Source of the DNA: a virus
Lineage: Duplodnaviria; Caudoviricetes
Virus record (IMG/VR): IMGVR_UViG_3300007609_000001
Coordinates: 1-62,780 of that record
Length of the DNA stretch: 62,780 bases
Strand: one strand, 5' to 3'
How positions within the stretch are numbered: position 1 is the stretch's first letter; every line of letters starts with the position of its first letter. Below the pieces are notes generated by a model. The model did not search any database and was not told the DNA's origin. It was given only the letters and a program-made list of their open reading frames with translations. The translations under genes were made by a program, and so were the position numbers. This document shows positions 1,807-29,800 of the stretch, piece after piece.

Positions 1807-2015
1807 GAAACTCACGGGTCCCTCTGCTGAGAAAGGGGGTGGGGGTGTTTTTAGAGATGTGCGTTGAGAATTAAGAGAGGGGTGGGGGTACTTTGAAAAT
1901 TTTGCAAATCGTTCGTGCAAATTGGCATGTATATAGAGTTGAGCGCGCCGCGCGTTTTTAGGGGGGTGGGGGGTCGCGCATAGACCAGCGCAGAATCGCC
2001 AAGGGGCGGGGTTAC

Positions 2016-2045
2016 TTGACAAAACATGGCAGAGCGTGGTAGGCT
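2016..2045 (+). promoter_or_regulatory. sigma70-like promoter TTGACA-N18-TAGGCT with extended -10 TG
   Basis: Sequence match to the consensus. Confidence 0.5.
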
Positions 2046-2137
2046 CGCGCGTCGTTAGATCGCGCGGTTCGTTATGCGGGACAATGCCAGCCTGCCAGCC
2101 TGCCCATTCGTCTAATTAGACGTTTCGTTGATGTGGT

Positions 2138-2166
2138 TTGACTTGTCAGGCTAGATCATGGATAAT
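2138..2166 (+). promoter_or_regulatory. sigma70-like early promoter TTGACT-N17-GATAAT
   Basis: Near-consensus hexamers, 17-bp spacer, upstream of gene 2229. Confidence 0.7.
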
Positions 2167-2228
2167 TGATTCCGTGGTGGGGCAATCCTGCCCGCCACAA
2201 ACTGAAACTGAAAATGAGGGATTACATC

Positions 2229-2762
2229 ATGAGCACGAAGAAAGAGATTATCATCACCATTCGCAAGCATGGGCAGAAGATCGAACAGCATAATGCCGCG
2301 CTCGACGGGCGTGTAGCCGCTAGCGAGTTCGATACCGCATCTGCCGCGCAATCTACGCTCAACGCTAAATTGTGCATGAACTTGCTAGCAGGCAACGTTG
2401 ATCCGGCAATTAAGAAAGCCGCCGCCGAGCGCGGCGAATTGCGCAAGCTAATGCCGAGCGCAAGTAATGCTGATATCAACGCTATCAAGGTATGCGCGGG
2501 CATGGCGGCGACGGCATTGCGCAAGGGATGGCAGGAGCACGTAGACAGCGTGAAGCGGGTTCACGGCGTAACCCTGCAGGCATTGGCGAAAAGCGTAGCG
2601 GAAAAGAAGCCCGCGACTACGCCATTCAAGGAGCGCTATGTGCAGGCATGGGGCAAGCTGTACCAGCACGAGCGCGACCTAGCTAATCTGGAAGAACTCA
2701 AGGCCTTGTACAATCTTGCGATTGACGCGGGTTGGGTCAACCCGGATGAAGCGGATCACTAA
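2229..2762 (+). CDS. Hypothetical early protein (177 aa), monocistronic
   Basis: MSTKKEII start with GAGGG RBS; has its own promoter and terminator; flanked by two palindromes. Confidence 0.75.
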   Translation: MSTKKEIIITIRKHGQKIEQHNAALDGRVAASEFDTASAAQSTLNAKLCMNLLAGNVDPAIKKAAAERGELRKLMPSASNADINAIKVCAGMAATALRKGWQEHVDSVKRVHGVTLQALAKSVAEKKPATTPFKERYVQAWGKLYQHERDLANLEELKALYNLAIDAGWVNPDEADH

Positions 2763-2784
2763 TCGTCTAATTAGACGCTAACCT

Positions 2785-2812
2785 AGCCCGGCCTTGTGCC
2801 GGGCTTTTTTTT
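2785..2812 (+). terminator. Rho-independent terminator
   Basis: AGCCCGGC-cttgt-GCCGGGCT followed by a T run. Confidence 0.85.
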
Positions 2813-2859
2813 GTCCGCACGAAGCTGGCGCGCCCCCGCACCGCGCGCAATGTTTTTTC

Positions 2860-3423
2860 TGACCGTACCGTGACCGTTCCCGGTGGCGTAACAGTAATGG
2901 GCACTAACAGTGAAAGGCTTTATGACCGTACCGTGACCGTTCCCGGCAACAGTGACGGGCAGTTGAGGGCATTGTGACCGTAGGCGGCAGGCAGTTGAGA
3001 GCGTTGAAAGTGTCTAATTAGACGAAGTTTAGCGTGTTCTGGTATGACCGAACACGGGAAAGCTAAGCAGGGCGCGGGTTTCCGAGATATGCAAGTGGGC
3101 GTGTTCCGTCCATGTTCTGTCAGACCGAACACCGGAAAGCTAGCAGTGGCGCGGGTTGTTCCTAGATTAGAGTTAAGATTCAGTAGTTATTACTATCTAT
3201 CTATCTATCTATCATCACGCACTTCTCCGCTCAGCCTTGCCCGTCTGCCCTTTGCACGCGATTTACCCCTTCTCATGATCCAAAGCAATTCTCACATACA
3301 AAAAATTTCTTAACTAACCCATTGTTCTGCAACGATTTTCCTTGTTCGCTCCTACCGGAACAAATCCCACTTTATTTTTCATAACCCATTGTTTACAGTG
3401 ATGTTCCCTTGTTCGCTCCGACC
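2860..3423. repeat. Cluster of direct repeats in a non-coding region
   Basis: 24-bp TGACCGTACCGTGACCGTTCCCGG at 2860 and 2923; ~45-bp imperfect pair 3035-3080/3113-3157; ~42-bp imperfect pair 3315-3356/3382-3423; (CTAT)n near 3193. Confidence 0.8.
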
Positions 3424-3844
3424 CCTTCAATTCTCCCACTTACTCTCCCACTTGTCGCAACCTATAACCTTGTTTTCATTGCCTTTTTAGCTTTCGCCGT
3501 GACACTTTTTCCAAACGCTATTTAACATAATATAGACTAGCTTGCAGAGTTAATTCACATCCCTCTCCGCTCCCTTCTGCAAAACCACGTCAGGGCAGAA
3601 CACGCTAAGCCTTGCCGTGATTCGTCTAATTAGACAATTTACTCCATCGCCACTTAGCCCCACTTAGCCCTTATTCCCATTTGACTCGCCCGCCCTCGAT
3701 CTCCCACCATTTTCACCGATCTGGCTTGACTCGACATTACAGATCGCCAATATCAGGGCGAAACATCTCAGACCCTACCAACAATGTAATGCGCTCATGT
3801 TCCGTGTTTTCACCGCTTGCTCCCACCGGCTACACTTATCCCGT

Positions 3845-3873
3845 TTGACATCTCAAGCTAGGTATGCTATACT
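3845..3873 (+). promoter_or_regulatory. Strong sigma70 early promoter TTGACA-N17-TATACT with extended -10
   Basis: Near-perfect consensus ahead of the early gene array. Confidence 0.85.
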
Positions 3874-3953
3874 ATAGGCTCAGGCTGGGAGAAGCCCATG
3901 CCTGACATCCCAACCTTTAAGCAAACCGTCTAATTAGACGAAAGGAGAATGAC

Positions 3954-4292
3954 ATGAAAGACTTTACTTACAATGATGACGGCAACCTCGTGCCGCTTGG
4001 CACTTGTATCGAGGGCACGTTTCGCCCGCAAGACTTACTCCCTGCGTTCGTGAATCTGATCGACTTTGTCGCTCCGGCAGTATCAGCGCAAATTATGGTT
4101 AACGGCGGGGCTATCCCTGCCTACGCCGGTGAGGACGACGATCACCCGTGGTGGGAGAGTGAGGACTGCCAGTTTTGCATCGAGGAGATGTTTGACACGC
4201 TTAACGACTACGCGCCCGAGGGCTATTACTTCGGTGCCCATCCGGGCAACGGCAGTGACTTTGGGTTTTGGGAAATCAACGAGATCGTCTAA
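3954..4292 (+). CDS. Hypothetical acidic early protein
   Basis: 112 aa, AAAGGAG RBS, C-terminal GYYFGAHPGNGSDFGFW; the stop codon is the TAA inside a palindrome. Confidence 0.8.
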   Translation: MKDFTYNDDGNLVPLGTCIEGTFRPQDLLPAFVNLIDFVAPAVSAQIMVNGGAIPAYAGEDDDHPWWESEDCQFCIEEMFDTLNDYAPEGYYFGAHPGNGSDFGFWEINEIV

Positions 4293-4312
4293 TTAGACGA
4301 AAGGAGAATGAC

Positions 4313-4486
4313 ATGAGTATTGCAAGACAAGCGACGAACAAAGTAGTTGAGCTGGCCGAGGAAGGCATCCTTAACTGGGAGACTATCGCCAAGTGCTGCC
4401 TGTCCTACATGAGCGAGGACGATGTGCGAGACATGGCTGAGTGTGAGGGTTTGATCGACGAGGAGGACTTTGAAGATGAAGATTGA
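4313..4486 (+). CDS. Hypothetical acidic protein (57 aa)
   Basis: Same leader as gene 3954 (GTCTAATTAGACGAAAGGAGAATGACATG). Confidence 0.75.
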   Translation: MSIARQATNKVVELAEEGILNWETIAKCCLSYMSEDDVRDMAECEGLIDEEDFEDED

Positions 4487-4745
4487 AACCGTTGATGACT
4501 TCCGCGAAGCACTCGACGCGGGTGCTTATGTATGGCCGGGTGGGTACCCAATGTTCTTCATTGCCAGTGATGGTATGGCGCTGTCATTCAGCGCCGCTGA
4601 AGAAAACCGTGCGGAGATTGAGGACGCCCTAGAACGGCATGATCCGAGCGGTGGCTGGCTACTAGAGTACGCTACCGTGAACTGGGAGGATGACAACCTC
4701 CACTGCGCGCACACCGACGAGAAGATCGAGTGTGCTTACCCATAA
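4476..4745 (+). CDS. Hypothetical protein
   Basis: MKIETVDD...WPGGYPMFF; GAGGAGG upstream; overlaps the previous gene. Confidence 0.75.
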   Translation: MKIETVDDFREALDAGAYVWPGGYPMFFIASDGMALSFSAAEENRAEIEDALERHDPSGGWLLEYATVNWEDDNLHCAHTDEKIECAYP

Positions 4746-4808
4746 ACCCTGAATTTTCGGAGGTTGACTCCGAATTTACCGTCTAATTAGACAATTAAAA
4801 GGAGACCA

Positions 4809-5036
4809 GTGATGAATAAATCAGTTGTAGAAGCAACAGAGTTTAAGTTAGGCAACGACGAGGCTGCCCTAGTGATTAGCCCTGATAGTGTGAAGTTAGT
4901 CACGCCGGAGAAGGGCGACGACGAGGTAGTCACGCATAACGTGCAGTTCGCCGTGATGATGGCATACCTGCTGAGCACCGATGCTGAGTGGGTGAAGAGT
5001 GTAATTAAGCGATTCGAGGAGAGTTCCAATGACTAA
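4809..5036 (+). CDS. Hypothetical protein
   Basis: AAGGAG RBS after palindrome 4781. Confidence 0.7.
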   Translation: MMNKSVVEATEFKLGNDEAALVISPDSVKLVTPEKGDDEVVTHNVQFAVMMAYLLSTDAEWVKSVIKRFEESSND

Positions 5037-5346
5037 ACGTGTAGCAAATAAAGACGCCCGTGCCTATGTACGCCAGCGTGAAGAGTTCGAGGGTAGTAAT
5101 ACCTTTTCGATGTGGTACTACCAGCCAAAGATGTACGTGGTGTACTCATACGGCACTCACTGGCCGCTGTTTATCTATGCAGATGGTAAGTGGTACGAGA
5201 ACGCTGAGAAGTACAGTCCATCCACAAGTAAGCACCACTCACAACTTCACCCGCTATGCGAGACTGAGAAGCGTAATGCGCTAGATATGAAGTTGATCGC
5301 TGAATATGGTGTCGCTGAGTGGATGGCACGGAGACTGGCGGCCTGA
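5029..5346 (+). CDS. Hypothetical protein
   Basis: 105 aa, overlapping and probably translationally coupled; YVVYSYG...YSPSTSKH. Confidence 0.75.
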   Translation: MTKRVANKDARAYVRQREEFEGSNTFSMWYYQPKMYVVYSYGTHWPLFIYADGKWYENAEKYSPSTSKHHSQLHPLCETEKRNALDMKLIAEYGVAEWMARRLAA

Positions 5347-5397
5347 TGGCCGCCTCCTAATTAGGAAAGTGTCTAATTAGACAAAAGGAGTACAGTG

Positions 5398-5691
5398 ATG
5401 TTTGTAACCGACAAGATAGACACCGCCGTGCGTGTCACGCGCATTGAGCTGAGTGCCGATGACTGGGAGTTGTTCGACGACGCTGGCGGCGAGCGTGCAG
5501 AAGGTGCGGCGCGAGTGCTGAATAAAAAACTCACCGTCTGCGTGAACAAGGGACTCTCGCGTGAGGAAACCCGAGCGGAGATGGAGCTGCAGCTAAAACG
5601 CTATGAGGACTACGGCGCGACGGATACCGAGCCTCGCAATGTGTTGAGTATTTTGCTGGATAAATGCTACCCGCCGGAGTGGAGGTGCTGA
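5398..5691 (+). CDS. Hypothetical protein
   Basis: GGAGTACAGTGATG initiation region after two palindromes. Confidence 0.7.
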   Translation: MFVTDKIDTAVRVTRIELSADDWELFDDAGGERAEGAARVLNKKLTVCVNKGLSREETRAEMELQLKRYEDYGATDTEPRNVLSILLDKCYPPEWRC

Positions 5692-5711
5692 TATGAGTAA
5701 GGAGGCGAACA

Positions 5712-6104
5712 ATGATGACTAGCGCAGCACTATGCCTAGCATTGGCATTGTATTACGAGGCACGAGGCGAGCCGTTCGACGGGCAGTTAGCGGTGGCTGA
5801 GGTGGTGATGAACCGTGTCGAGAGCGAGCGGTTCCCTGATGATGTGTGTTCAGTTGTCACGCAAGGCGGTGAGCACCGTGATCAATGCCATTTTAGTTTT
5901 TACTGCGACGGCAAACCCGAACGCCCCGGCGATATGATCGCATGGCAGAAAGCACAAGACTTAGCGCAATGGGTGATTGCAGGAGAGGTGACGCTCGGCG
6001 TGCCTGCGACGCATTACCATGCTGAGTATGTGCATCCGTTCTGGGCAGATGAGTATGAGTACCTTGGGCAACTAGGACGACACAAGTTCTACGCTCAGAA
6101 GTAA
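5712..6104 (+). CDS. SleB-like cell wall hydrolase (Hydrolase_2)
   Basis: CLALALYYEARGEP...AVAEVVMNRV...FPDDVC...CHFSFYCDG...ATHYHA...HKFY. Confidence 0.88.
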   Translation: MMTSAALCLALALYYEARGEPFDGQLAVAEVVMNRVESERFPDDVCSVVTQGGEHRDQCHFSFYCDGKPERPGDMIAWQKAQDLAQWVIAGEVTLGVPATHYHAEYVHPFWADEYEYLGQLGRHKFYAQK

Positions 6105-6120
6105 CCGTCTAATTAGACAG

Positions 6121-6783
6121 ATGGGAGTAAATGAAATGGAAGTAGATATTAACGTGCTCAAGGAGCACTACCCCGACGAGTATCAGCGCTACTATGAGGA
6201 GTGGGCCGAGAGCCAGTGGGAGTTCATGGACGAGACTTGGGACTCTGATATGTACCAACTTGCTAAAGAGTGGCTTGAGGGTACCGGATGGGATGTATAC
6301 CTCGCAGAGTACCGGCTGTGCTACTCACAAGGCGATGGCGTGGGGCTTGATGCGTGTTTTGAATATACACACATGAGCGAGGAGAAGCGTAACGAGTTCC
6401 GTGAGCGCTTCCCGATGTGCGCTGAGATGATGCGCCGCGAGATGTTGTGGGTGAGCACTGTCGTGCAACGCCACTACGCTGCATCCCGTGTTGAGTGGGA
6501 AGCTGACTACCCCGGGTCTGAATACATTGACCTTTCACCTGAGCTGTTGATGGGCGGCATCTATGACGGTTTGCCCCTGTTCACTGCGGTGCAGCTCTGC
6601 GAGGAGGAAGGCGAGGACAACGCGGCTGAGTTTTTATACCAAGACATTATTGACGTTGAGTGCCGGCTCTATCGGTGGATGTTAGATGACGCTGAGCATA
6701 GAACCAGCGAGGAGATGTTCATTGAGTGGGCGCGCGATATGGAGGAAGTATTTGAAGTTGAGAAAGATCACGAGGTAGCTTAG
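6121..6783 (+). CDS. Hypothetical acidic protein
   Basis: 220-aa ORF after palindrome 6107; YSQGDGV motif; true start may be the second Met (6136). Confidence 0.7.
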   Translation: MGVNEMEVDINVLKEHYPDEYQRYYEEWAESQWEFMDETWDSDMYQLAKEWLEGTGWDVYLAEYRLCYSQGDGVGLDACFEYTHMSEEKRNEFRERFPMCAEMMRREMLWVSTVVQRHYAASRVEWEADYPGSEYIDLSPELLMGGIYDGLPLFTAVQLCEEEGEDNAAEFLYQDIIDVECRLYRWMLDDAEHRTSEEMFIEWARDMEEVFEVEKDHEVA

Positions 6784-6796
6784 CTACCAGAGGTGA

Positions 6797-6930
6797 GTGC
6801 GTAGTGCCTCGGGTTTTTCATGCCCTAAAACACGCACAGTCGGCACGAGCCATTCCCTCACGGCTGCTTGACGTAGCCGCTTTTCTTCCACTCGGGAACC
6901 GACCGGCTGGCCCACGAGACGGGCTTTTCT
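6797..6930 (+). ncRNA. Candidate structured intergenic RNA
   Basis: Nested stems GTCGG/CCGAC, CGAG/CTCG, CGGCTGC/GTAGCCG with pyrimidine-rich internal loops; flanking hairpins. Confidence 0.4.
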
Positions 6931-6965
6931 ATTCGTCTAATTAGACAATTCAAAGGAGTACAGTG

Positions 6966-7361
6966 ATGGGATATAGAAGTGATGTAGGCATAGCCTTAGC
7001 GTTCAAGACCAAGGGCGAGTGCGATAAGTTTATCATGGCGTACAAGCTCAAAGCGCCTGAGTTCTGGAACGAGATGGTAGTCGGGGCATGGGATCGCGTG
7101 GACGACCGCGTGTTAGTTGGGCACTACGATTGGATAAAGTGGCACCCTATTTATGATGATGTGAAGGGGGTGCTTGACATGATTGATCTGGCGGTCGAGA
7201 GCTGCAACGCTACGTACCGATTTGTCAGGGTGGGCGAGGAGTGCGACGACATCGAGACTATTGAGGAAGATGATAACGCCGATGAAAACACCCCGATGTT
7301 GTGCGACTACGTAGACGTGCGCCGGTCTGTGGATATATCAGCAGGTGAACCGTTAGACTAG
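6966..7361 (+). CDS. Hypothetical protein
   Basis: MGYRSDV...FVRVGEECDDIE; GGAGTACAGTGATG initiation region. Confidence 0.75.
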   Translation: MGYRSDVGIALAFKTKGECDKFIMAYKLKAPEFWNEMVVGAWDRVDDRVLVGHYDWIKWHPIYDDVKGVLDMIDLAVESCNATYRFVRVGEECDDIETIEEDDNADENTPMLCDYVDVRRSVDISAGEPLD

Positions 7362-7368
7362 AACTGAT

Positions 7369-7397
7369 TTGACATTTCAACTCAACTATGAGATAAT
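7369..7397 (+). promoter_or_regulatory. sigma70 promoter TTGACA-N17-GATAAT with extended -10
   Basis: Near-consensus, upstream of gene 7432 and the AAA operon. Confidence 0.75.
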
Positions 7398-7431
7398 AGT
7401 GTTTCACAATAGGAAAACTAGGAGTACAGCG

Positions 7432-7695
7432 ATGACGACTAAAACCAAAGAAGCACCAGCCAACAAGGCGGTGGTTAATATCAATTTCTCAGACTATGTG
7501 TTCCCTATGGAGGATGCGATCACGTTGATGCGTCTGATGGAGAAGGCGGAACGCTACGAGAGGAATTATCGCCCGGAAGAGAATGGCGGTGAGCAGGTCT
7601 ATGTGTGGTCGGGCGTGCCTGAACTGCGCGTGAACCTGATAAGTGGGGATGAGTACCTGCGAGGTAAGATCGCAGGCCACCCCGATTACGAGTAA
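7432..7695 (+). CDS. Hypothetical protein (87 aa)
   Basis: GGAGTACAGCGATG initiation region. Confidence 0.7.
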   Translation: MTTKTKEAPANKAVVNINFSDYVFPMEDAITLMRLMEKAERYERNYRPEENGGEQVYVWSGVPELRVNLISGDEYLRGKIAGHPDYE

Positions 7696-7730
7696 GTGTC
7701 TAATTAGACGATTCAATTAGGAGTACAGCG

Positions 7731-8762
7731 ATGACAACAGTAAACCTTAACGAAGCAGCACATCTTGTCCGCACCTGTGGACAGACTAATACATTTATCT
7801 TTCAGGGCGAACCGGGCATAGGCAAGTCTGCCATGCTCCATGCACTGGCGGATAAGTCTGACCTTGAGCCGCGCTACATCGACTGCGCCTTGCTCGACTT
7901 GGGCGATCTGCAAATGCCCCGTGTGGGTGAGTCGGTAGAGTTCGTGCCCAATAAGATGTTCGTCGGTGACAAGCCGCTGATCATCATGCTCGATGAGATT
8001 GGCAAAGCTATGCGCCCGGTGCAGAATGCCTTGCTAGCCTTGTTACTTGAACATCGCATCGGCAACCACAAGCTGCCCGAAGGCTCCGTGGTGTTTGGCA
8101 CGACCAACATGGCAAGCGATGGTGTGGGCGATATGATGCAGGCGCATGCCCGTAACCGTGTGACTTTTCTCACAGTTCGCAAGCCTGATGCCGATGAGTG
8201 GATTGACTGGGGTGTGGGTAACGACATTGACCCGACGATCATGGCGTGGGTTAAGGAGTACCCGCAATGCCTTGCCAGCTATGCTGACGACCCGGATGGT
8301 GCGACGGATAACCCGTACATCTTTACCCCGCGTAAGCAGCAGGCTGCCTTTGTCACGCCTCGATCCCTTGCACATGCCTCGCATATTGTTAAGCAGCGAG
8401 CCAACTTGACTGATGATGTGCTGATATCGGCATTGTCTGGCACGATTGGTGAGTCTGCCGCGCGTGATATGCAGGCGTTCCTGTCGGTGGCTGATGCGCT
8501 ACCGCCGTTCAAGGCAATCATTGAGAAGCCTGAGACTGTTCAGGTGCCTGACTCGCCCATTGCCTGTGTGATTCTGGCGCTGGGTGCGGTGACTCGCATG
8601 ACTGCCGAGAACGTCGATGCGTGGATGACATACCTCGCCCGCTTGCCCCGTGAGGTGCAGTTCATGTTTGCCCAACAGGCGATGCGTAGTCGCAGTGCAG
8701 CTGTGGTTGTGAAGTCAAAGCACTTCACGGACTGGGCACGCGAGAACAGCTGGGCAGTTTAG
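7731..8762 (+). CDS. MoxR/AAA_5-type AAA+ ATPase
   Basis: GEPGIGKS Walker A, IMLDEIGK Walker B, VQNALL, TTN sensor, TPRS. Confidence 0.9.
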   Translation: MTTVNLNEAAHLVRTCGQTNTFIFQGEPGIGKSAMLHALADKSDLEPRYIDCALLDLGDLQMPRVGESVEFVPNKMFVGDKPLIIMLDEIGKAMRPVQNALLALLLEHRIGNHKLPEGSVVFGTTNMASDGVGDMMQAHARNRVTFLTVRKPDADEWIDWGVGNDIDPTIMAWVKEYPQCLASYADDPDGATDNPYIFTPRKQQAAFVTPRSLAHASHIVKQRANLTDDVLISALSGTIGESAARDMQAFLSVADALPPFKAIIEKPETVQVPDSPIACVILALGAVTRMTAENVDAWMTYLARLPREVQFMFAQQAMRSRSAAVVVKSKHFTDWARENSWAV

Positions 8763-8788
8763 TTTCCTAATTAGGAAGGAGTACAGCG

Positions 8789-9943
8789 ATGAATAACTTA
8801 ACCCACGAGCAGCGACTACAACGTAGTCACATTTCCTTGATGCGCTCGCCCAACTTTGCTTTGTTGTCCGGCATTATCCTGCTGGGCACGAGCAGTGTGA
8901 AGGACGGTGTACCCACTGCGTACACTAACGGGCGTGACAAGGTGTATGGCCGGGAGTTCATGGACACGCTCGACGAGAAGCAGCTTAACTTTGTTGTGGC
9001 GCATGAGAACTTTCACGTTCTCTATAAGCATCTGACGACATGGCAGAAGCTATGGCAGGAGGATGCCAAGCTGGCTAATAGGGCGTGTGACTACGTGATC
9101 AACCAGCAGATACTTGACCTCGACCCGGGCAATAACTATGTGCGCTTGCCTGAGATCAACCTCTGCCTAGATGCGAAGTACCGAGGCTGGGATGCCAAGC
9201 AGGTCTATGACGACCTCAAGCAGCAGCAAGACGAAGGCGGCGGCTCTGGCGGTGACTCATTCGATGAGCATGGCTTTGACGATGCGCAGTCTATGAGTGA
9301 GCAGGAGCGCAAGGAGCTGGAGCAGGCGGTCGATCAAGCCGCGCGTCAGGGTGACATTCTGGCTGGGAAACTCAACGGTAAGACTAACCGTGATATCGGT
9401 GCGATACCTGAGCCGCAAGTCGACTGGCGTGAGCAGTTGCAAGACTTCGTGCAGTCTGTCTGTGCAGGGCGTGACAGCAGCACATGGCGCAGGCCTAACC
9501 GACGGTGGCTGGCTAGCGGGGCTTATATGCCTAGCCCCTACTCTGAGTCTATCGGCCCGGTGGTGGTCGCTGTGGATACCTCGGCGTCTATTAGTGCTGA
9601 GACTATCAACCAGTTCTTATCTGAGATTGTGAGCATCACTGAAGCCATGCCGCCTGAGCGCATCCATCTGTTGTACTGGGATACTAAGGTAGCCCGTGAG
9701 GAGGTGTATGTGCCCGGTGAGTATGAGTCTTTAGCCAGTTCAACCAAGCCTGCGGGTGGTGGGGGTACTGACCCGGGATGCGTCAAGCACTTTGTCGATG
9801 GCATGGGTACTAAGCCTGAGCTGGTGCTGGTGCTGACCGACGGGTACATATACGGCGACTGGCCGGACTTCAACGAGCCTACTTTGTGGGTGTCAACAAG
9901 CAACCGTGTCTCGCCTTATGGCAAGACTATTCACATTAAGTAA
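8789..9943 (+). CDS. Metallopeptidase-like plus VWA domain protein (DUF2201-like)
   Basis: VAHENFH (HExxH), NRACDYVIN, MIDAS VDTSAS, GGGGTDP, LTDGY. Confidence 0.88.
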   Translation: MNNLTHEQRLQRSHISLMRSPNFALLSGIILLGTSSVKDGVPTAYTNGRDKVYGREFMDTLDEKQLNFVVAHENFHVLYKHLTTWQKLWQEDAKLANRACDYVINQQILDLDPGNNYVRLPEINLCLDAKYRGWDAKQVYDDLKQQQDEGGGSGGDSFDEHGFDDAQSMSEQERKELEQAVDQAARQGDILAGKLNGKTNRDIGAIPEPQVDWREQLQDFVQSVCAGRDSSTWRRPNRRWLASGAYMPSPYSESIGPVVVAVDTSASISAETINQFLSEIVSITEAMPPERIHLLYWDTKVAREEVYVPGEYESLASSTKPAGGGGTDPGCVKHFVDGMGTKPELVLVLTDGYIYGDWPDFNEPTLWVSTSNRVSPYGKTIHIK

Positions 9944-9971
9944 TCGTCTAATTAGACAAAGGAGTATAGCA

Positions 9972-10829
9972 ATGAGTATGTCAATTAGTTCATCTGCAAT
10001 GTTAGTTGATTTGTCAATCAGTTCATGGACGGCGCGTAAGCTCGACAAGGGCGTTACCGACGAGGTGAACACTAGCAAGCACGCCAGCCAGCAGGCATCG
10101 CGTGTCAATAAAAACCTACTGCCCGGTGTGGAGCAGCTCGACGGCATCGTCAAGCACGCTGCGATGGTGCGAAACTGGGTAGCTACCCGCACGCTGCCAT
10201 GGTCTGACTATGGCCCACGGCTGATCACCACGGATAAGTTCTTTGACTTCAAGCGTGAGCTAGACCAGTACGAGCGTGAGTTCCATGAGAAGGTGCAGAG
10301 CTTTCTGGATGTATACCCCACGCTCATTAGTATGCAGGCGTTCAAGCTAGGTGATATGTTTGACCGCGAGGAGTACCCTGATGTGTCTGAGCTTGCGAAT
10401 AAGTTTAGGTTCAACGTAGCCTACCTGCCCATACCGGAGACAGGAGACTTTCGTGTGGACATTGGCCGTGAGGCGCTTGATGAGGTTCGCTCGCAGTATG
10501 CACGGGAGTACGAGCAGCGCTTGGAGAACGCGATGAACGAGGTTCGAGATAGAATACTCAACTCATTACGTCACCTGTCTGAGCGGTTCACCGACAACGA
10601 CGACGGCTCGCGTAAGCGCTTTCGCAATAATGTGCTTGAGAACTTTGCCGAGACAATCGCCTCGGTGCGTGAGCTTAACCTGACTAAGGACGCCGCCATT
10701 GATGCTATGGCGCTTGAGGCTGAGGAGGCAATACGCGGTGTTGATGTTGATAGTTTGAAAGAAAGTAAGGAGGTTCGTGAGGATGTACGTGAGCGTGTTA
10801 ACTCAGTTCTTGATGCCTTTTCATTCTGA
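9972..10829 (+). CDS. DUF3150-like protein
   Basis: 285 aa, WTARKLD...TLPWSDYGPRL...FDREEYP; typical neighbour of AAA/VWA pairs. Confidence 0.6.
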   Translation: MSMSISSSAMLVDLSISSWTARKLDKGVTDEVNTSKHASQQASRVNKNLLPGVEQLDGIVKHAAMVRNWVATRTLPWSDYGPRLITTDKFFDFKRELDQYEREFHEKVQSFLDVYPTLISMQAFKLGDMFDREEYPDVSELANKFRFNVAYLPIPETGDFRVDIGREALDEVRSQYAREYEQRLENAMNEVRDRILNSLRHLSERFTDNDDGSRKRFRNNVLENFAETIASVRELNLTKDAAIDAMALEAEEAIRGVDVDSLKESKEVREDVRERVNSVLDAFSF

Positions 10830-11083
10830 TGCTTAGGGTATTTAGAGACGAGGATGGTGAGTGGTGGGCTGAGCCTTTACTCAAAGATACATGGGGTAGT
10901 GAGACCCAACGTGTAAGTTCTATTGATGAGTTTGATGACGAGGTGGCTGACCGCCTCGCCATTCTTTTGCACGTTGACCATAACGACCATGTAGAGGGTA
11001 TAGGTCGGCGCATTAGTAAAGATACGTTTTGGCTTTTCCACGAGGGTAAAGACTCGTGGTTACTTTCAGCTTTCAAGGAGTAG
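10829..11083 (+). CDS. Hypothetical protein
   Basis: TGATG-coupled ORF. Confidence 0.65.
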   Translation: MLRVFRDEDGEWWAEPLLKDTWGSETQRVSSIDEFDDEVADRLAILLHVDHNDHVEGIGRRISKDTFWLFHEGKDSWLLSAFKE

Positions 11084-11084
11084 T

Positions 11085-11435
11085 GTGATGAAGAAGTTAT
11101 TAGTGACGATGTGCATGTCAGTTTTTCTGCTGGCAGCTAACCCGGCCCCGGCGCAGGCGCAAGGCAGCCTGACTGAGGATATGTGTAAACACGTCTATAC
11201 ATTGTCTGACAATGTGATGTTATTGCGGCAATACGGCATGCCTATGCACGAGGTAAGAGCCATGCTGCTTACTCAGGTGGACTCGGAGATCGCCGCTGAC
11301 ATTATTAAGGCAGTTATATCTGATGCCTATGCCATGCCTCGGCTGCACAACGACGACATGATTCAGTCTGAGGCGACTGAGTTTGCTAATAAGAACTACC
11401 GCGAGTGCCTCTTGGCATTTGGCGATGCGACATAA
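11085..11435 (+). CDS. Hypothetical exported protein
   Basis: Sec signal MKKLLVTMCMSVFLLAANPAPAQA; two Cys in the mature part. Confidence 0.7.
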   Translation: MMKKLLVTMCMSVFLLAANPAPAQAQGSLTEDMCKHVYTLSDNVMLLRQYGMPMHEVRAMLLTQVDSEIAADIIKAVISDAYAMPRLHNDDMIQSEATEFANKNYRECLLAFGDAT

Positions 11436-11444
11436 AGGTGCGCT

Positions 11445-11708
11445 ATGAGTGATAAAAATAACGTTGAGAAAATCTACCCGGTGCATGCGCTTAGAAACCC
11501 GGACAAGCTGTTGGAGTTGTGCAAGGGAGACTTCGAGGTCGTGTGTGTTTTGGGTGTTAACAAGTCAGGTGCTTTGACGGCAAGGGCAACGGATAACATG
11601 ACAGTCGCTGAATTGGTCTTTTACATGGAGCAGGTCAAGGCGATTCTGCTCGATGGCAGAGATGATGACGACGATGACGATGATGACGATGATGAGGACG
11701 ATGAGTGA
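11445..11708 (+). CDS. Hypothetical protein with poly-Asp tail
   Basis: 87-aa ORF followed by palindrome 11711. Confidence 0.7.
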   Translation: MSDKNNVEKIYPVHALRNPDKLLELCKGDFEVVCVLGVNKSGALTARATDNMTVAELVFYMEQVKAILLDGRDDDDDDDDDDDEDDE

Positions 11709-11743
11709 TCGTCTAATTAGACGATTAGCATGGAGGTCATGGT

Positions 11744-12268
11744 ATGGCTACTAAAGTATGTGAGCAATGTGCTGAGGAGCTTCCCATTAAAATGTTCTGG
11801 GGGGAGCACCGTAAGCGGATGAAGGTGTGTACGCCCTGCAGGCGCAAGGAGGCACGGCGAGCTAAGCGTCGCCGGGCTAGGATGCGTGAGTTGCAGGCAC
11901 AAAAACGTGAGGAGATAAAGCGCGTGGTGCAGGAGCAAGATAGAAAGATGCGGGAGACCGCGATGTACGCTGGCGTGTTGGAGCTTAACAAGATTATCTC
12001 TAGGATCGACAACAAGCTCAAGAAGTACAGCGACAAGGTAGCCTATTGTGAGGGCAGTGCTCGCACTGAGGCGGCGATTGAGTATCAGTGGAAACGGCGG
12101 GCGTATTATCAGGAGATCAAAGACTTACTGTATGCTGATGCTGCGCGCGGGATAGATCGCCCGCTTGAGTTTTATTTGAGCAATACATATTTACTTCACA
12201 AGCATGGGTTTCCTGTGGTAGTAATTGACGCTCACCCAGATGAGGATATAGACAATGCCGATAGTTGA
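11744..12268 (+). CDS. Hypothetical protein with CxxC...CxxC and a basic coiled coil
   Basis: CEQC...CTPC. Confidence 0.65.
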   Translation: MATKVCEQCAEELPIKMFWGEHRKRMKVCTPCRRKEARRAKRRRARMRELQAQKREEIKRVVQEQDRKMRETAMYAGVLELNKIISRIDNKLKKYSDKVAYCEGSARTEAAIEYQWKRRAYYQEIKDLLYADAARGIDRPLEFYLSNTYLLHKHGFPVVVIDAHPDEDIDNADS

Positions 12269-13857: not shown

Positions 13858-14154
13858 ATGGCTGATACCCCCGAGAAAAAGGTAAAAAAGAAAGTCGTTG
13901 AGATTCTAAAACAATACGGCGCTTATTACTTCTACCCTGTTACTGGTGGGTTTGGTGCCAGCGGGGTGCCTGACATCATTGCTTGCTACAACGGCAAGTT
14001 CCTTGGCATCGAGGTTAAGGCAGACGCAAAGAAGCGTGGCCCGACAGCGTTGCAGCAGAAAAACTTGGATCAGATCAATGCGACAGGTGGTGTCGCAGTC
14101 GTGATCGACGCTAACAATATAGATGAAGTAGAAGCCTTGATGGCGGGGTTGTAG
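13858..14154 (+). CDS. VRR-NUC / Holliday junction resolvase-like nuclease
   Basis: PEKKVK...GVPDII...GIEVKA...PTALQ. Confidence 0.85.
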   Translation: MADTPEKKVKKKVVEILKQYGAYYFYPVTGGFGASGVPDIIACYNGKFLGIEVKADAKKRGPTALQQKNLDQINATGGVAVVIDANNIDEVEALMAGL

Positions 14155-23777: not shown

Positions 23778-23803
23778 GCCCCCGGTTCGCCGGGGGCTTT
23801 TTT
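23778..23803 (+). terminator. Rho-independent terminator where the two arms converge
   Basis: GCCCCCGG-ttcg-CCGGGGGC-TTTTTT. Confidence 0.9.
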
Positions 23804-26800
23804 ATTCCCCGTCGTAAACGTAGTTTCTCATTCTGCGAATTTGCGGAGCCAGCCGTGCTTGGAACTCACGCTCGCGATCTATCCGATTACGTTTTTCTTC
23901 AGGTGACAAGTTAGAGTTTTGAATTTGCTCTATCCGGTTGTTGCTCTTTCGCAGCGTACTTTCTACTCGGTTTATTTGCGTGCGGACTTGCAGCAGTCGC
24001 TTGCTGTCCTCCATGATCTCTTGCACGCGCTCAACATCTCCGCGCTCCCTTGTTAGATTCAATGAGCCAACCGCTGCCCGAACTTCATCTCTGAGCTTGT
24101 AGAAGTCTTGCTTAAACCCGCTGCCTTGCGTGCGGTTAAATAGCACACGAGCTACTGGGTAGTCGGCAAGCTCCCGCTGCGTCTTTTTCTCGCCCGTTGC
24201 CTTTTCATACATAATATCTGTAATAGTCAACGCATTGCCGCCTAACGTACCTAGATACCCTTTTAGCAAATGGTCTGCCACTAGCGGCGATATACCCACG
24301 TTGGCAAACAGCCTAGCCAGCTGCGAAGTGCTCTCACGGTACTGCTCGTCAATCTGTTTATACTGCTCGCCCATGCCAACAATAGGCGCACCGGTGAAAA
24401 AGTTGTAGTTGACCATCGCCTCTAACGACGGCTTTATTAGCTGTGGCGTAAAGTTCGGCCCAAAGACTGCGGTAGTAAACGCATCTCTAAGTTCTACAGC
24501 TGTTTTCTGAGAGTCGAGGTCGTCCCGCATCATGCCCATTACTGCTGCTTCTGGAAGCGCTTTTGTTATAAACGCAAGGTCTGCAGGCATAGCCAGCTTT
24601 AAGGCAGGGCGATCATCGCCCGTTGGTATTAAGAAAAAGCGTGACCGTATGTGCGGTGGTTGATTAACGTACTCTTCGTCGTCAGCGTTCATCAACGCAT
24701 AGAGCCCGCTGAGTATGCTGAGTTTCATCATAGCGCCCCAAAACACACCTAGCGCTTGGGTTTTTTCTGCCTGACTTAAACCTCGGCCTACCATAGACTT
24801 ACCCAAAACGTTCATGCCTTGAGCGTACGCATTCATAAATGGGATAACCTGACGCAACACTGACGCAAACTGGCTAGTGCCCCGACGGTTAAAGTTAATA
24901 ATTTCTGAGGCACGCCAGAATGCTAGCGTCTCGTTGTTTGTCTCCGCTAGGGTTTGGTCGTACACGGCTTTTCGCTGCGCTAAGTCTGAGGCTTCAGCGT
25001 TACGCTCGCCCCACCGCAGCAGCCATGCCAGCGGTTGGTTAGAAAATGTCAGCTCCTCACCTAGCGCTGCTGCCTCTGCTGTTTGCCTTGCCTGCTCGGG
25101 CATGTAGTCAAATTGCCCGACAATACCGTAGCGGTTAAGGTTTTCTTCTCCAAAGGTGCCTCGCCGTAAGTCTTGGCGGATGTTCCACCAACTTGTGCTT
25201 ACTCGCACTGCACCTCTAGCTGGGTTCTTCAACCCCCCAAAACCATACGAGCGGAACGTATCCTGCTGTATCTGGCTGAGAATAAAGTCAGGCGACAAAG
25301 TAATGCCTTTACGCAGGAAGTTAGCTAGCGCCGCAAAAGGACGAAGCATGGGTATATTGGCTGATTCTGTGCCCCGCCAAGCATACGCATCTAACGGATC
25401 GTGCAGCACCGCAAATCTTAATTTGCCGTTTTCTTTCCACGAAATAGCGTTCGGCCGATCTGCTGCAGGAACCTGCTGTAGCGACGCGTACTCTTCTTTA
25501 ACCCCAGTACCGGGGCTTTGCGCTTCGACCTCTCTAAGGCCACGTACCATTTCTCTGGCAGCATGGTTGCGCACCGCCGCTTGAGTCATCCACATAGACA
25601 ACTTAGCCATATTATCAATGACGTTATCTATCTCACGGGGAGAGCCGCGTAGGCGTTTAATCTCACCAATTCTCATCAACCCACTTGTGTGGACTTCATA
25701 CCCACTGGCGGTGCCGGGGTCAGCGTCATCCAACAAACGGTTAAACGGCACATAAGCTACGTTGTCTTTGAGTTCTGCAGCATACTCTTTAGACACTACC
25801 CCTGCCTCTACCATTGCGTCGATCTGCCCGTTTTTAAATTTGGTAAACATATCAAACGCATTCTGGAGCTCAGGGTACTGGTTGAACAGTTTAACTAGTT
25901 CCCGGTTTTCGCGTTGCCGCTCTGCAATCTGCTGGCCGTCTAGGTTGGGGTATAAGTCAACAATACCCTCTTCTATCTGGCTCGCTTCTTTTTGCCGACC
26001 TCGGGCTCTTTGGGCGTCAGCTTTGCGCTGCAGCTCAGCATTGTTTCTGTCTATTTCCAGCTCTCGCTGTGCGATAGTCGCAGCGTGAAACCGATTAACG
26101 GCGTTAGTGTGCCCTATACGATCACCGAGTTTGCCAAGTTCTGCGTTAACATCTGTAATTGAAGGCACCCCATCCCGGCGAACAGCGTTCCACAACCCAG
26201 TTGTTCGGTCTAGCACTAAAGAGCCCGCTCGTAACACTGACGCTGCTAAGCCCTCGGAGCGCAGGGATTGCACGTAGGAGACCATGGGGTTGATGACGCC
26301 TTGTGAATTAACTACGGCGTTGTTATACAGCCGCATAATTTTGTCTTCGACAGTAGCGGCCGCGTCTATCATGCGGACCCTGAACGTGTCTCGCAGCCTC
26401 CACTCACCCGATAGAATGTTTTTAACGTCTTTCGCCGGATTAGATTTGTTCTGCGGCGAGGGGGCCCGAGCTTCTGCTAGCGAATCAAACCCATCGTTAA
26501 CAGGCCGCGCGGCTTCCGCACGTCGGGAAAAGTTTACTTGATCGTAGAAACTATCATCGACCGGGGCATTCGCAATGTCTTCTTGCGTTGGATCAGGAAC
26601 TTCCTTGCGCCCTTCTGCAATATCACGGACGTGCTGCCCTGCTTCTTCTACGTCAAACCCACGATACCCTTTATCCCACGCACGCTGCATGGTGTGCGCA
26701 GCCATAGTTTCGGGGCGTAAAAACACTCGACTCTTACGCAAGGCGTTGCGCCCACCTTCCACGTGCATAGCCGCTTCATAAATTAACTGATCCAGCAACA

Positions 26801-29800
26801 CATCGGCTGGGTCTACAAAGCCTAGTTTAGATAACGCTGCACGAACACGGCGGACAATGTTATCCCACGCCCGGCGAATGCCGCTGTCTGAAAGATAGCT
26901 AGCTTTAGACTCAGCGATGTGTGCGATGATTTCGCGTGCTTCTTGTTTGTCATTCAGGGCGTACTCGCCTTGCGGGTTAGTGTACTCGCGGCGAATTGCC
27001 TCAATGATGCGCCTCATGCGCGCGTTGCCAGATTTAAGTTTGTTGATCTGGTTAACAAGGTTGTTAAACGCTGAGCGGCCCAGCAACTGCTCCATGCCTG
27101 CATGGCCTACGACTTCGTGAGCTAGCACAGTCTCAAAATCAAATTCACTTACCGCATCAGCAACGATGTACACCTTGCCTTTGTAGTAAACGCCTCGCAC
27201 ATTGGTCGGTATATCTAAGTCTGGAATATCAGTTGATGACTGAACAACCTCAACTTCAACCGTGTCTTTAACTCGATTAAGTAATTTAGAAAACGTCTTT
27301 TTGAGGTCTTCCGCTTTTGACAACTGCTTGTTCACGAACGGCGCGCGGCTAAATACGATATCTGTATCGTCGTCGATTGGCCCGAGGTCTTCTTGAACTT
27401 GTGCGTCAATCTCAGCATCAGTGGCGGCGCGCGTAACGCCTGCAGCCTGTCTAACAGACTGTATCTGACGATCCATGCTAAGTGCTGCTGATGGGTTGGC
27501 CGTGAAGTATTCGTAGTCACGCACCTCGTTGTAGACGTGCATGATGGCCTTAGCACGAGCTTGCTCACCGCGTTGAATTTTCTGCCTAAAGTCTTCAAGC
27601 TGCTCATCACTCAGCACGCCGTCTTGGTTAGCTTGGTTAAGCACCGCGTTGGTGTTTGTTTCCGTCGGGGCAGTGATTGCTCGTTGCAAAGGCAGCGCGA
27701 TAGGCGGCAGGCCTTCTAGTGTAGCGTCGCTAGCTGGCACTCCATCTGTGTCTGTACTAGCAGGTGCGCTACGGCGGCCCACTCCTCCGGCATCAGGTGT
27801 TTCACTTGGCTCGGCGGCTCCGGTTCGTTGTTCTCCACCCACGTCCACGCTAGGCTCAGCTGCTCGCTCGTCAGCTGCAGGCTCCGGTTCGCGACGTGCA
27901 GCACGACGACCGCCTCGTCGTCTCGGCGTAGGTTGTTCAGCATCTTCAGTGGGCCGTCCCGCATCTTCTACCTCCGGGGCAAATTCATTAGCAATTGCAG
28001 ATTCTATCTTGTCAATGGCAACAGGGTTTACTTCTCCTGTGGAGTCGTTTACTTCGCCAAACATACGCGCGATATATCTTGCGCGAAAATTAGGGCGGTC
28101 CCTCATCCCGTCAACATTGAACCCCGCAATGCGCTGCTGCAGGGTTTTTCCGTTTGATTCCGCAGTTACGCCAATAGGAACCCCGTTACCGTCACGCGAA
28201 AATGTAATTTCTGCATTCTGCCAGTCCGAATCATCCCAGTTTGTTTCAGGGTGCGGAAATTGACTGTTACCGTTAGTAAGGGAGCTCTGTTTATTTTCTA
28301 AAAAATTGGTTAAGCGCGGAGCGTACGTTTGCGCCCACTCTGGGTACACCATCCGGTATGTATTTAGCTCAGCTAATAACTCATTAGGCGACGCTAAGTA
28401 TTTGTGGTCTTGCAAGGCAACGCGCTGCTGGTCAAAGTTCCCATACAGCGCTGTAGATATGTTGATCAATTCCGCTTCAATTTCTGCAGGGTTGTTGCGC
28501 ACTAACGCGTCAAGCTCACTCGCGTGGTTAGAGTGAGTCAGGTGGCCAGCTTCATGGGCCAGCACCCGATAATACAAAAAGTCTTTGTTTTTGTTGTAGA
28601 ACTTGTCAGTGTTAAGGAATAGCGTCGAGTTAAACACCACTCCCAACGGTTGAGGCAGCTCGTAAACAAATTTACTTGTGCGTGGAGTGAGTTTAGGGTA
28701 AGCCTGTTCCACCCGCGAAGACAGCTCCTGACGCTGCTCATCACTTAGCGTCTGCGTCCACTGAGACAGTGGCGACGCATCCAGATCAGACTGAATTGAT
28801 GGGAGATGATTAGCTTCGCGGTCAGGGTTAGTAGTTGGGTTAGCGTTGGGGTCAACAAGCTCCCCTTGCGGAACATCTACGCCTTGGTTTTCATCAAAAT
28901 TAACCGAAACGCTAAACCCGCCGTTTACCTGCCCAGTGCCAATAAGCGTAGTTTGAATAGTTTGATCCGTTTGAGTAGTTTGCTCCGGTGCGCGCGCGTC
29001 TCGGGAGGTGCTAGTAGTCGCATCAAAAGTTGGGCTTTCTCTAAGACGTCTACGCTCAGCATCAATGACTTCAGTCTGTTGGTCAAACGCTCCTTCTACC
29101 GTCTCCACGCCGCTAAACAAGTCGCCTCTGGGCTCTGGCTGGGCAAACAAGTCAGGTTGTTCTGGCTGCACTTCTCCACGCGCTTCGCGGTCAAGGCGGC
29201 GCTGCTGCGCACGGCGCTGGTTAGACAGACCTGATTTTAAACGCCCCCACTGCTGAGTACCGAGCTGGTTTCTTGCTTCCTGCTCGATAGCCTGAGTGAT
29301 ATCTGGATCGTTAAGCGCTTGCGCTTCGGTAAACTGCTGCACAAAGTCCGACGCTGCTACTTTCTGGCCTGTTTCTAACTGGGGCGCGGTGTCCTCGACA
29401 TACTGCATGTCCAGCTCAAAGTCGGCGGCTTCTTGTTCGGCCATCTGGTCGAGCCCACGTTCACGCATCTGGGCTTCTTCTTGCCGTTGTCTTAACTGCG
29501 TACGGGCGACATCTTTCCACTCTTGAGTCAGCGGAATACGACCAGTTGCCTGCTCTCGCACACGTTCCGCTTGCCGGTCTACTAACTGCCGGCGCAAAGC
29601 AGCGCGACGTTGCTCTTCTTGGGTTTGAGCCTCGGCTTCACGGCGCTGGGCTTGGGCACGAGCACGGTAGTCTTGCTCTTCCTGCATACCCCGCTCGACG
29701 GCAAAATCTACGTCTTCTTGCAGCGCTCTACGAGGGGCTGCTTCCCGCTCAGCTTGCTCAAGCCCAATCCGCTCGCGCTCTGCCCGCAGCGCTTCAGCTT

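Follow-up and report, generated by a model that had tools for sequence, protein, structure and literature searches.

Short, perfect palindromes in many intergenic copies were known earlier from the Cluster O mycobacteriophages, Corndog and its relatives. In these phages, 17-bp dyad repeats (TGTTCGG-N3-CCGAACA) are present in more than 30 copies genome-wide, 11 of them inside genes, within one cluster of five near-identical phages; the authors propose that dimeric regulators read them, and their function is still unexplained (PMC4351075). The stoperators of Cluster A phages such as L5 and Bxb1 are described as repressor-bound sites that block elongation and whose motifs differ between subclusters (PMC6550527), and the promoter-early stem-loop (PeSL) cassette of T4-type phages is described as a sigma70 promoter joined to a terminator stem-loop (PMC2839356). 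Here we describe 15 palindromes in the early region of an uncultured phage (Duplodnaviria; Caudoviricetes) represented by record IMGVR_UViG_3300007609_000001, positions 1 to 62,780 of which were analyzed (hereafter the window, to which all coordinates refer). The sites are real and belong to a system shared across the phage family, in which each lineage places its own perfect, dyad-symmetric word at set positions in early operons; the palindromes look most like fast-evolving binding sites for a phage regulator.

The word GTCTAATTAGAC occurs 13 times in the window (2110-2121, 2765-2776, 3012-3023, 3624-3635, 3928-3939, 4287-4298, 4781-4792, 5371-5382, 6107-6118, 6935-6946, 7698-7709, 9946-9957, and 11711-11722), and a variant, TCCTAATTAGGA, occurs twice (5355-5366 and 8765-8776). 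We name each site by its first base or, counting from the left, as sites 1 to 15. Shuffled sequences held a mean of 0.01 copies of GTCTAATTAGAC, none of 100 shuffles reached 13, and 0.00 copies of TCCTAATTAGGA were expected from shuffles; the 13 and 2 copies counted within 2.1 to 11.7 kb in a preliminary description of this DNA are thus confirmed. All 15 are perfectly palindromic, and all are confined to 2110-11722, that is, to 9.6 kb of early genes. Their 8-bp core, CTAATTAG, is found 15 times in 62,780 bases, against 0.63 expected, and always within these palindromes. A search for GTCTAATTAGAC that tolerated up to two mismatches returned 14 matches (2.02 expected by chance), the sole addition lying at 39652. 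Because the relaxed search adds only a match at the level of chance, the window copies are all-or-none perfect.

The sites are tied to the boundaries of genes. No site lies inside a gene body except site 4287, whose own TAA (4290-4292) terminates the open reading frame (ORF) 3954-4292, and the stops ending at 2762, 6104, 7695, 8762, 9943, and 11708 each stand exactly 2 nt ahead of a site (2765, 6107, 7698, 8765, 9946, and 11711, in turn). Three-frame stop coverage was considered as the cause of this 2-nt offset and rejected, since the TAG of the motif is in frame with the real stop and one frame stays open. A start codon with its Shine-Dalgarno sequence follows 10 of the 15 sites at a distance of 12 to 21 nt (3928, 4287, 4781, 5371, 6107, 6935, 7698, 8765, 9946, and 11711); the Shine-Dalgarno sequence begins 0 to 10 nt downstream of the site, and the leader is often the same, AGGAGTACAG(C/T)(G/A)ATG. 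The remaining five (2110, 2765, 3012, 3624, and 5355) are not directly ahead of a gene. Three of the 15 lie about 90 nt or less from a promoter-like site, and the others are intercistronic. The preliminary description had reported placement at gene boundaries or in noncoding DNA, six sites 2 nt past stops and one supplying the stop at 4292, with most sites followed by the next ribosome-binding site. The ORF positions bear this out throughout, the sites occupying leaders and intercistronic gaps of + strand early operons.

Relatives of the phage keep sites at the same junctions and change the word. We compared the window with five whole-record viral contigs (G001 to G005) and with further related contigs (L-numbered loci). 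The AAA ATPases of G001 to G005 are 49 to 89% identical to that of the window (7731-8762, + strand), and these records contain the core CTAATTAG 4, 7, 7, 11, and 6 times, respectively. In G001 and G003 the word is GTCTAATTAGAC, often lengthened to 14 to 16 bp; (T)TCCTAATTAGGA(A) stands at 7 of 7 sites in G002 and 11 of 11 in G004; and GAGTCTAATTAGACTC stands at 6 of 6 in G005. The junction preceding the ATPase gene has kept its site in all five. A site is likewise present in every one of the G001 to G004 records that covers the junctions preceding the ATPase gene, the DUF2201 metallopeptidase/VWA gene (8789-9943, + strand), and gene 11744, and the junction preceding the DUF3150 gene (9972-10829, + strand) has a site in G001, G003, and G004 and none in G002. 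More distant contigs, with ATPases about 50 to 55% identical, lack the core and carry ATTAAC-N3-4-GTTAAT at the same junctions, including the one ahead of the DUF2201 gene. The change of both arms together that had been noted between GTCTAATTAGAC and TCCTAATTAGGA is therefore real and is the rule among whole-record relatives, and the selection on symmetry proposed on that basis is strongly supported, as relatives keep dyad words at the same junctions with both arms changing together.

The same holds on a wider scale. Scanning metagenome contigs with an ATPase profile yielded 80 more loci, and among the 60 loci, viral or from metagenomes, that reach 5 kb, 51 have an inverted repeat with 6-nt arms in at least three copies, compared to 0 of 60 shuffles. 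At the same junctions, different lineages have different words, of which there are at least 14. Among these are GTCCTA-NN-TAGGAC, ATACTAAATAGTAT, ATACTGTC-N-GACAGTAT, ATAATGTC-N-GACATTAT, ATACCGTC-N-GACGGTAT, TTCCCACT-N-AGTGGGAA, TTACTAC-N3-GTAGTAA, TATAGGTA-(G)C-TACCTATA, TAAAAACGTTTTTA, and TATAGAT-N3-ATCTATA, and a contig binned with a Methylophilaceae genome has the additional word TGGTAC-N1-3-GTACCA. Five different words occur among lineages whose ATPases are 79 to 92% identical, implying that words are replaced far more quickly than core genes diverge. Exact scans of viral contigs with two 14-mers gave mostly single chance matches and one new relative, L149, and literature searches found nothing on this motif or phage family. 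The bacterial genomes examined (a Spiribacter locus and the contig of the Methylophilaceae metagenome-assembled genome) showed no sign of a prophage of this family. The former, on a scaffold of Spiribacter salilacus (537783-558811), holds an ATPase gene (product 76% identical) paired with a DUF2201 gene, without repeats and among large - strand genes; it looks like an island and not like a prophage of this phage family.

Within the window, the first site (2110) stands between two tandem early promoters on the + strand, P1 and P2, and 16 nt ahead of the -35 of P2. P1 (2016-2045; TTGACA, 18 nt, TGnTAGGCT) is a putative sigma70-like promoter recognized by consensus and by conservation, being conserved in three relatives in the alignment, and P2 (2138-2166; TTGACT-17-GATAAT) is sigma70-like as well. 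The 16-nt spacing recurs in G004, and two further contigs (L141 and L266) share the layout with 26 and 10 nt. A strong sigma70-like promoter (3845-3873, + strand; TTGACA-17-TATACT, with TG ahead of the second hexamer) lies further downstream; when at least 10 of 12 consensus matches were asked of a promoter-like site, scanning the + strand of the region gave only three. Site 2765 follows the first early gene, gpA (2229-2762, + strand), and is 8 nt ahead of a terminator-like hairpin (2785-2805). Sites 3012 and 3624 are within a 1.1-kb noncoding stretch (2820-3930) that separates gpA from the next early operon. This stretch contains pairs of direct repeats (2856/2919, 2958/2990, 3046/3123, and 3337/3404) and a (TATC)n run near 3194-3215, and reads from other metagenomes seem to be cut in it, at 3183-3222.

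Site 3928 lies in the leader of the transcript predicted from promoter 3845, 14 nt ahead of the ATG at 3954, and site 4287 is 14 nt ahead of the ATG at 4313. The cassette of site plus leader at 3925-3957 (+ strand) recurs in 4284-4316 with 31 nt identical, so that direct repeats flank gene 3954. Further along, site 4781 precedes gene 4812-5036; the variant site 5355 stands in tandem with site 5371, 4 nt apart, the latter preceding gene 5398-5691; site 6107 precedes gene 6136-6783; and site 6935, directly past a terminator-like hairpin (6909-6925), precedes gene 6966-7361. Site 7698 is ahead of the ATPase gene, the second variant site (8765) is 12 nt ahead of the DUF2201 gene, and site 9946 is ahead of the DUF3150 gene. 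The last site, 11711, is a 16-bp palindrome when its flanks are counted and precedes a basic zinc-finger gene (11744-12268).

How does this arrangement compare with the described systems? In the features reported for them, the Cluster O repeats are the closest: in both sets, many short inverted repeats keep their arms constant around a free centre, most copies fall in short gaps between genes or at gene 5' ends, the word is absent from other genomes, and recombination between copies has been linked to insertions and deletions (PMC4351075). In contrast to Cluster O, the 15 copies here are confined to 9.6 kb of early genes, with none inside a gene bar the site that supplies a stop, and a whole family uses at least 14 words at corresponding junctions; nor are the two related in host, phage type, or sequence. 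The stoperators, with 20 to 30 copies of a 12- to 13-bp word, resemble our sites in lying mostly off promoters and in short intergenic spaces, but they are asymmetric, oriented with transcription, and bound by the monomeric immunity repressor of temperate phages, whereas the window has perfect palindromes and no recognizable repressor or integrase (PMC6550527). Their motifs are described as varying by sublineage together with the binder; here the word varies by lineage, and two early proteins, gpA and g6136, co-vary with it in a few genomes. PeSLs are also repeated regulatory words that border small early genes of unknown function and are a likely substrate for modular shuffling, but the elements here are 12- to 16-bp palindromes with a Shine-Dalgarno leader, mostly without a promoter and with weak hairpins (PMC2839356). 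We file the palindromes with the many-copy intergenic operators; they lack defining features of stoperators (asymmetry, a known repressor), of PeSLs (a promoter with a terminator in every unit), and of integrons (an integrase, a long attC).

Our preferred reading, which we hold tentatively and at somewhat less than even confidence, is that the palindromes are duplex-DNA operators at which a dimeric DNA-binding protein of the phage, specific to its lineage, blocks or tunes transcription of the early genes. The operators of dimeric proteins usually span 12 to 18 bp in total, with a free centre of 0 to 5 bp, as these words do. The first argument concerns symmetry. We numbered the classes of word, class 1 being the GTCT type and class 2 the TCC type. 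Of 46 class 6 sites, 45 have a complementary C and G on the two sides of the lone central base (C-N-G); in classes 2 and 3 an A..T pair stands beside the free 2-nt centre in 43 of 43, a count for which the search pattern itself required A..T; and the centre of the window word is itself palindromic. Dyad symmetry thus reaches bases that are unable to pair in a hairpin, which favors a duplex-DNA site read by a symmetric protein. Asymmetric centres, where they exist, occur in both orientations (AGGT 36 times against ACCT 10, and AGT 6 times against ACT 4).

The second argument concerns uniformity. Given that 13 of 13 copies are perfect, that no near-copies exist above chance, and that the relatives are equally uniform, recognition is likely to be sequence specific rather than purely structural. 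The copies within a genome show zero compensatory or wobble variation, which points to a reader of sequence and not of shape, and the possession by each lineage of its own word fits joint shifts in the specificity of a binder and of its sites. Position appears to be under selection as well. Sites shun ORFs in every class (9 of 46 class 6 sites inside ORFs against 62% for random positions, and 1 of 14 class 10 sites against 60%), and because words without stop codons avoid them too, the intergenic position is selected and not forced by the stops in CTAATTAG.

Promoter geometry is conserved as well. Across 332 sites of nine classes, and counting promoter-like sites with at least 10 of 12 consensus matches, a -35 starts 70 to 100 nt upstream of the site centre 34 times, compared to about 2.8 expected; measured from the transcript start, the site would then stand at roughly +35 to +65. 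A second position, with the -35 beginning 19 to 28.5 nt past the site centre, is seen at nine loci of seven classes, where each 10-nt bin would hold about 0.6 by chance. Site 2110 shows both geometries, with P1 and P2, and site 3928 shows the upstream one, with promoter 3845. Under the operator reading, host RNA polymerase would start at the few sigma70-type promoters at the left end of the early region and would have to pass a site in each leader and then another ahead of most of the early genes, singly or in pairs. Once bound at a site, a protein would stop or slow elongation and, at the first promoter pair, would also cover the region upstream of P2. The whole early block would then be turned down together once the protein accumulates, or in a genome of the same type that enters later.

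Two early proteins are candidates for the binder. The first, gpA, is a protein of 177 amino acids (aa) whose gene is bracketed by sites 2110 and 2765 and then by the terminator; its candidacy, as a member of a fast-evolving family, is by inference only. The same layout is found in L266 and L141 and, on the upstream side only, in G004, where neither a site directly after the gpA stop nor a terminator was seen. The family has 64 representatives among 1.84 billion proteins. A window-like gpA subfamily accompanies class 1 sites at 3 of 3 loci, and a G004-like one accompanies class 2 sites at 1 of 1. The second candidate, g6136 (6136-6783, + strand), is an acidic, tryptophan-rich protein of 215 aa whose alleles track the site type: of its 166 variable columns, 63 tell class 1 genomes apart from class 2 genomes, compared to 0 to 6% of columns in 11 of 13 other families, 17% in gene 6966, and 16% in gene 12833. 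It exists as two deep allele types, 62 to 82% and 42 to 43% identical to the window copy, and its family is confined to genomes whose words are of the CTAATTAG type, L225 among them although it is otherwise distant.

Other proteins were considered. The zinc-finger protein 11744 has no class-separating columns and its gene is missing from L225, and the small helix-turn-helix (HTH) protein 12642 has two such columns (its paralogue 13621 was outside that test); a search with HTH_3 gave only a weak match. For classes 6, 7, 8, and 10 a candidate reader is a family that looks like a ribbon-helix-helix protein by eye, as judged without a domain search, and that is present in 11 of 11 loci of these classes, with strand residues that show no obvious dependence on class. 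In L233, L234, L240, L246, L243, and their relatives, which belong to the same four classes, a site falls within the 3' end of the ribbon-helix-helix-looking gene, where it is translated ILSDS, IMSDI, IPSDG, or LLPSS by class.

Several observations weigh against the operator reading. Family and domain searches (Pfam, NCBIfam, PDB) and the co-variation tests name no binder: gpA has no Pfam, NCBIfam, PDB, or Atlas match, and g6136 has no Pfam, NCBIfam, or PDB match and, being strongly acidic, would be an odd DNA binder. The co-variation with site type comes from few genomes (3 + 1 for gpA and 2 + 3 for g6136), and the first early gene of other lineages is from a different family (hhalign probability of 1% between families A and B). 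No integrase or recognized repressor was found, so the temperate setting of stoperators is missing. The window also contains two sites of the other type (TCCTAATTAGGA), which a strictly type-specific binder would not use. Finally, three points sit more easily with a signal in RNA. The centre of class 5 is sense biased (AGGA 60 times, TCCT 0) and is often the Shine-Dalgarno sequence itself; lineages with CTAATTAG have a conserved P1 upstream of site 2110, so that all window sites may be transcribed, from P1 or from later promoters; and the placement between stop and Shine-Dalgarno sequence, 2 nt past six stops, suits an RNA-processing or translational element, whereas a roadblock needs none of this.

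These three points support the strongest competing explanation, to which we give an appreciable but clearly smaller chance, namely, that the palindromes act at the RNA level in a polycistronic early mRNA, in cleavage, in protection of 3' ends, or in control of the next ribosome-binding site. The reader could be a lineage-specific phage RNA-binding protein or nuclease, or two self-complementary copies could pair with each other into a 12- to 17-bp duplex; such copy-copy pairing would by itself be expected to keep all copies in a genome identical and perfectly palindromic. The early RNase III sites of T7 are long, irregular hairpins that the host enzyme cuts by reading their shape. Our locus is laid out as that region is, with tandem host-type promoters, a signal in the leader, signals between a cistron and the next ribosome-binding site, and small acidic early genes; unlike the T7 sites, however, the words here have 12 to 17 nt, are identical within a genome, and vary between lineages. 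In class 1, a start codon lies 6 to 30 nt past 39 of 50 sites, and 20 of the 50 touch or overlap a stop codon.

Folding and variation speak against the RNA explanation, as does the symmetry at bases that a hairpin leaves unpaired. Twelve window stretches were folded as RNA, and 11 gave only -2.9 to -6.5 kcal/mol, with site 15 reaching -9.9; the folds at 5349, 7692, 8759, and 9940 were no better than those of many shuffles, and the hairpins have 4 to 6 bp and no T run. Besides the lack of compensatory or wobble changes within a genome, the outer variable positions show no consistent excess of sense-strand G:U in the four classes compared (G..T against A..C was 6/21 in class 1, 21/7 in class 2, 30/20 in class 5, and 2/10 in class 6), and such imbalances as there are go with the purine-rich leader that comes after the site. 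In classes 6, 7, and 10 no TTGAC(A/T) hexamer, the sole promoter signal sought and hence a weak negative, was found in the 130 nt before the first site, so the first site would precede the first recognizable promoter. An Rfam search of 1900-12200 at E ≤ 1 placed no family at a site; its three weak matches, all below the gathering score, cover the gpA terminator (2739-2819) and touch site 2765 only at its edge. No ribonuclease was recognized among the early genes scanned. The preliminary description had offered mRNA-processing hairpins as one of its alternatives; the placement of the sites agrees with that proposal, and the weak folds and the symmetry at unpairable bases do not.

It had also offered recombination or gene-capture junctions forming an integron-like array. 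A version of this idea that dispenses with a dedicated trans-acting factor, in which the repeated site plus leader serves mainly as a PeSL-like junction for homologous recombination during early-gene swap and loss, strikes us as improbable, although some traces of exchange exist. Apart from the 31-nt identical direct repeats around gene 3954, the order of genes 3954 and 4313 is swapped in G004, the window has sites at junctions where G004 genes overlap, and the tandem sites 5355 and 5371 are of two types. In a near-identical strain from another metagenome, a TTCC-type site replaces site 3012 (joint 2970>3026, with flanks 92 to 98% identical). Contigs from other metagenomes show joints from 8737 or 8746 to 3926 (the 3' end of the ATPase gene to site 3928); in addition, 8781 is joined to 4471 and 4312 to 4476. 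The sides of several joints are short (21 to 30 nt), and these joints may arise from the repeat itself. In Cluster O, deletions were made by recombination between such repeats (PMC4351075).

The breakpoints themselves do not single out the sites. We ran the comparison that the preliminary description had suggested and placed 91 homology breakpoints against 12 relatives: within 30 nt, 14 fell at the 11 site-bearing boundaries (1.27 each) and 8 at the 8 site-less ones (1.00 each), and within 15 nt the values were 0.55 per site-bearing and 0.88 per site-less boundary. Gene turnover in 10829-11708 goes on without sites. Moreover, identity would suffice for homologous recombination, so the dyad symmetry and its upkeep over at least 14 words would be left unexplained. 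Resolvase and Phage_integrase searches in six frames found no match, in keeping with the earlier remark that no recombinase is recognizable; the positive control of the Phage_integrase search (PF00589) matched in 14 of 14 genomes. The attC sites of integrons are imperfect inverted repeats of about 60 to 140 bp that fold as single strands, in contrast to the 12- to 16-bp perfect palindromes found here with no integrase match. Integron-like capture is therefore not specifically supported, with no recombinase found and breakpoints no commoner at site-bearing boundaries; shuffling is a plausible side effect of any repeated leader of about 30 nt and not an explanation of the palindrome.

A role as a promoter, or as part of one, for an RNA polymerase under phage direction (virion-borne, phage-encoded, or a redirected host enzyme) we regard as very improbable. 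In its favor, near-perfect repetition and lineage specificity are also seen in the hairpin promoters of N4 and in T7-type promoters, the copies here stand upstream of genes, the nearest cultured ATPase relatives are N4-like (24 to 28% identity among the matches listed), and a 2667-aa virion-type protein is encoded. Against it, a Shine-Dalgarno sequence 0 to 10 nt past the site leaves no room, on the N4 geometry, for a start and leader, promoters that are perfect palindromes would fire in both directions, strong sigma70-type promoters already serve the region, and the giant protein matches LPD38 only and no PDB sequence.

The operator reading is also where the third alternative of the preliminary description, stoperator-like sites, has led. 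As a class of explanation it is the one we favor; the asymmetry of stoperators is not found here, and the proteins that had been named as possible binders stay candidates. Its overall interpretation stands in part, with respect to symmetry and stoperator-like sites and not to integron-like capture. Extending the operator reading, we speculate that an apparently lytic family has an immunity-like specificity system, an idea that we consider unlikely. Lineage palindromes would be read by a fast-evolving early protein (here gpA and/or g6136), the first genome would shut its own early genes and those of later genomes of the same type, and escape from relatives would drive the switching of words between phages with 80 to 90% identical core genes.

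The window is a whole virus record of 62.8 kb with end repeats, and because G004 continues across the window ends in an 847-aa gene, which is split in the window, the record is a circular assembly. Early and replication genes, including those for a DNA polymerase, a helicase, and a primase, occupy the + strand at about 2.2 to 23.5 kb. The - strand holds the virion genes, including a portal gene and the gene for the 2667-aa polyvalent-domain protein (23802-31805), whose sole recognizable part is LPD38 at residues 2376-2551. A megablast search of 2000-12000 against 50,697 phage records found no match, and no tRNA was found in a tRNA search. The ATPase protein search returned N4-like and other phages only, all below 60% identity, the 24 to 28% range holding among the 30 matches listed.

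Some neighboring features are recorded here in their own right. The four small early proteins encoded at 3954-5036 are very acidic (acidic to basic residues 21:2, 18:4, 20:5, and 14:7), a composition like that of DNA mimics or anti-host proteins, and no family match was found for them. Past the last site there are two possible structure-specific nucleases, the basic zinc-finger protein of 11744-12268, with weak matches to endonuclease VII/HNH, and a Hjc-like protein (13858-14154). Left of the early region, a gene for a DksA/TraR-like zinc-finger protein (1572-1790, - strand) opens the - strand operon, and the ORFs listed at 1744-2022 and 1851-2027 look spurious, overlapping P1 and a set of G-rich repeats. 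These repeats, GGGGG(G)TGGGGG(G)T at 1833-1848, 1871-1886, and 1960-1975, lie just upstream of the first early promoter and site. They are also found in L266, L141, G004, G005, L231, L233, L237, L240, L243, and L244, irrespective of the inverted-repeat word, and could be a packaging, end, or origin signal.

The element can be traced through about fifty related genomes in which its position is fixed and its sequence has repeatedly been replaced, which makes the family a natural experiment in the joint change of specificity of a regulator and all of its sites. If the palindromes act at the RNA level, they would represent an intercistronic signal of a new type. Should a binder be found, the family would provide a set of orthogonal operator/regulator pairs, an insight into the timing or defense of the early program by lytic phages, and a simple rule by which early operons may be marked in metagenomic phage genomes.

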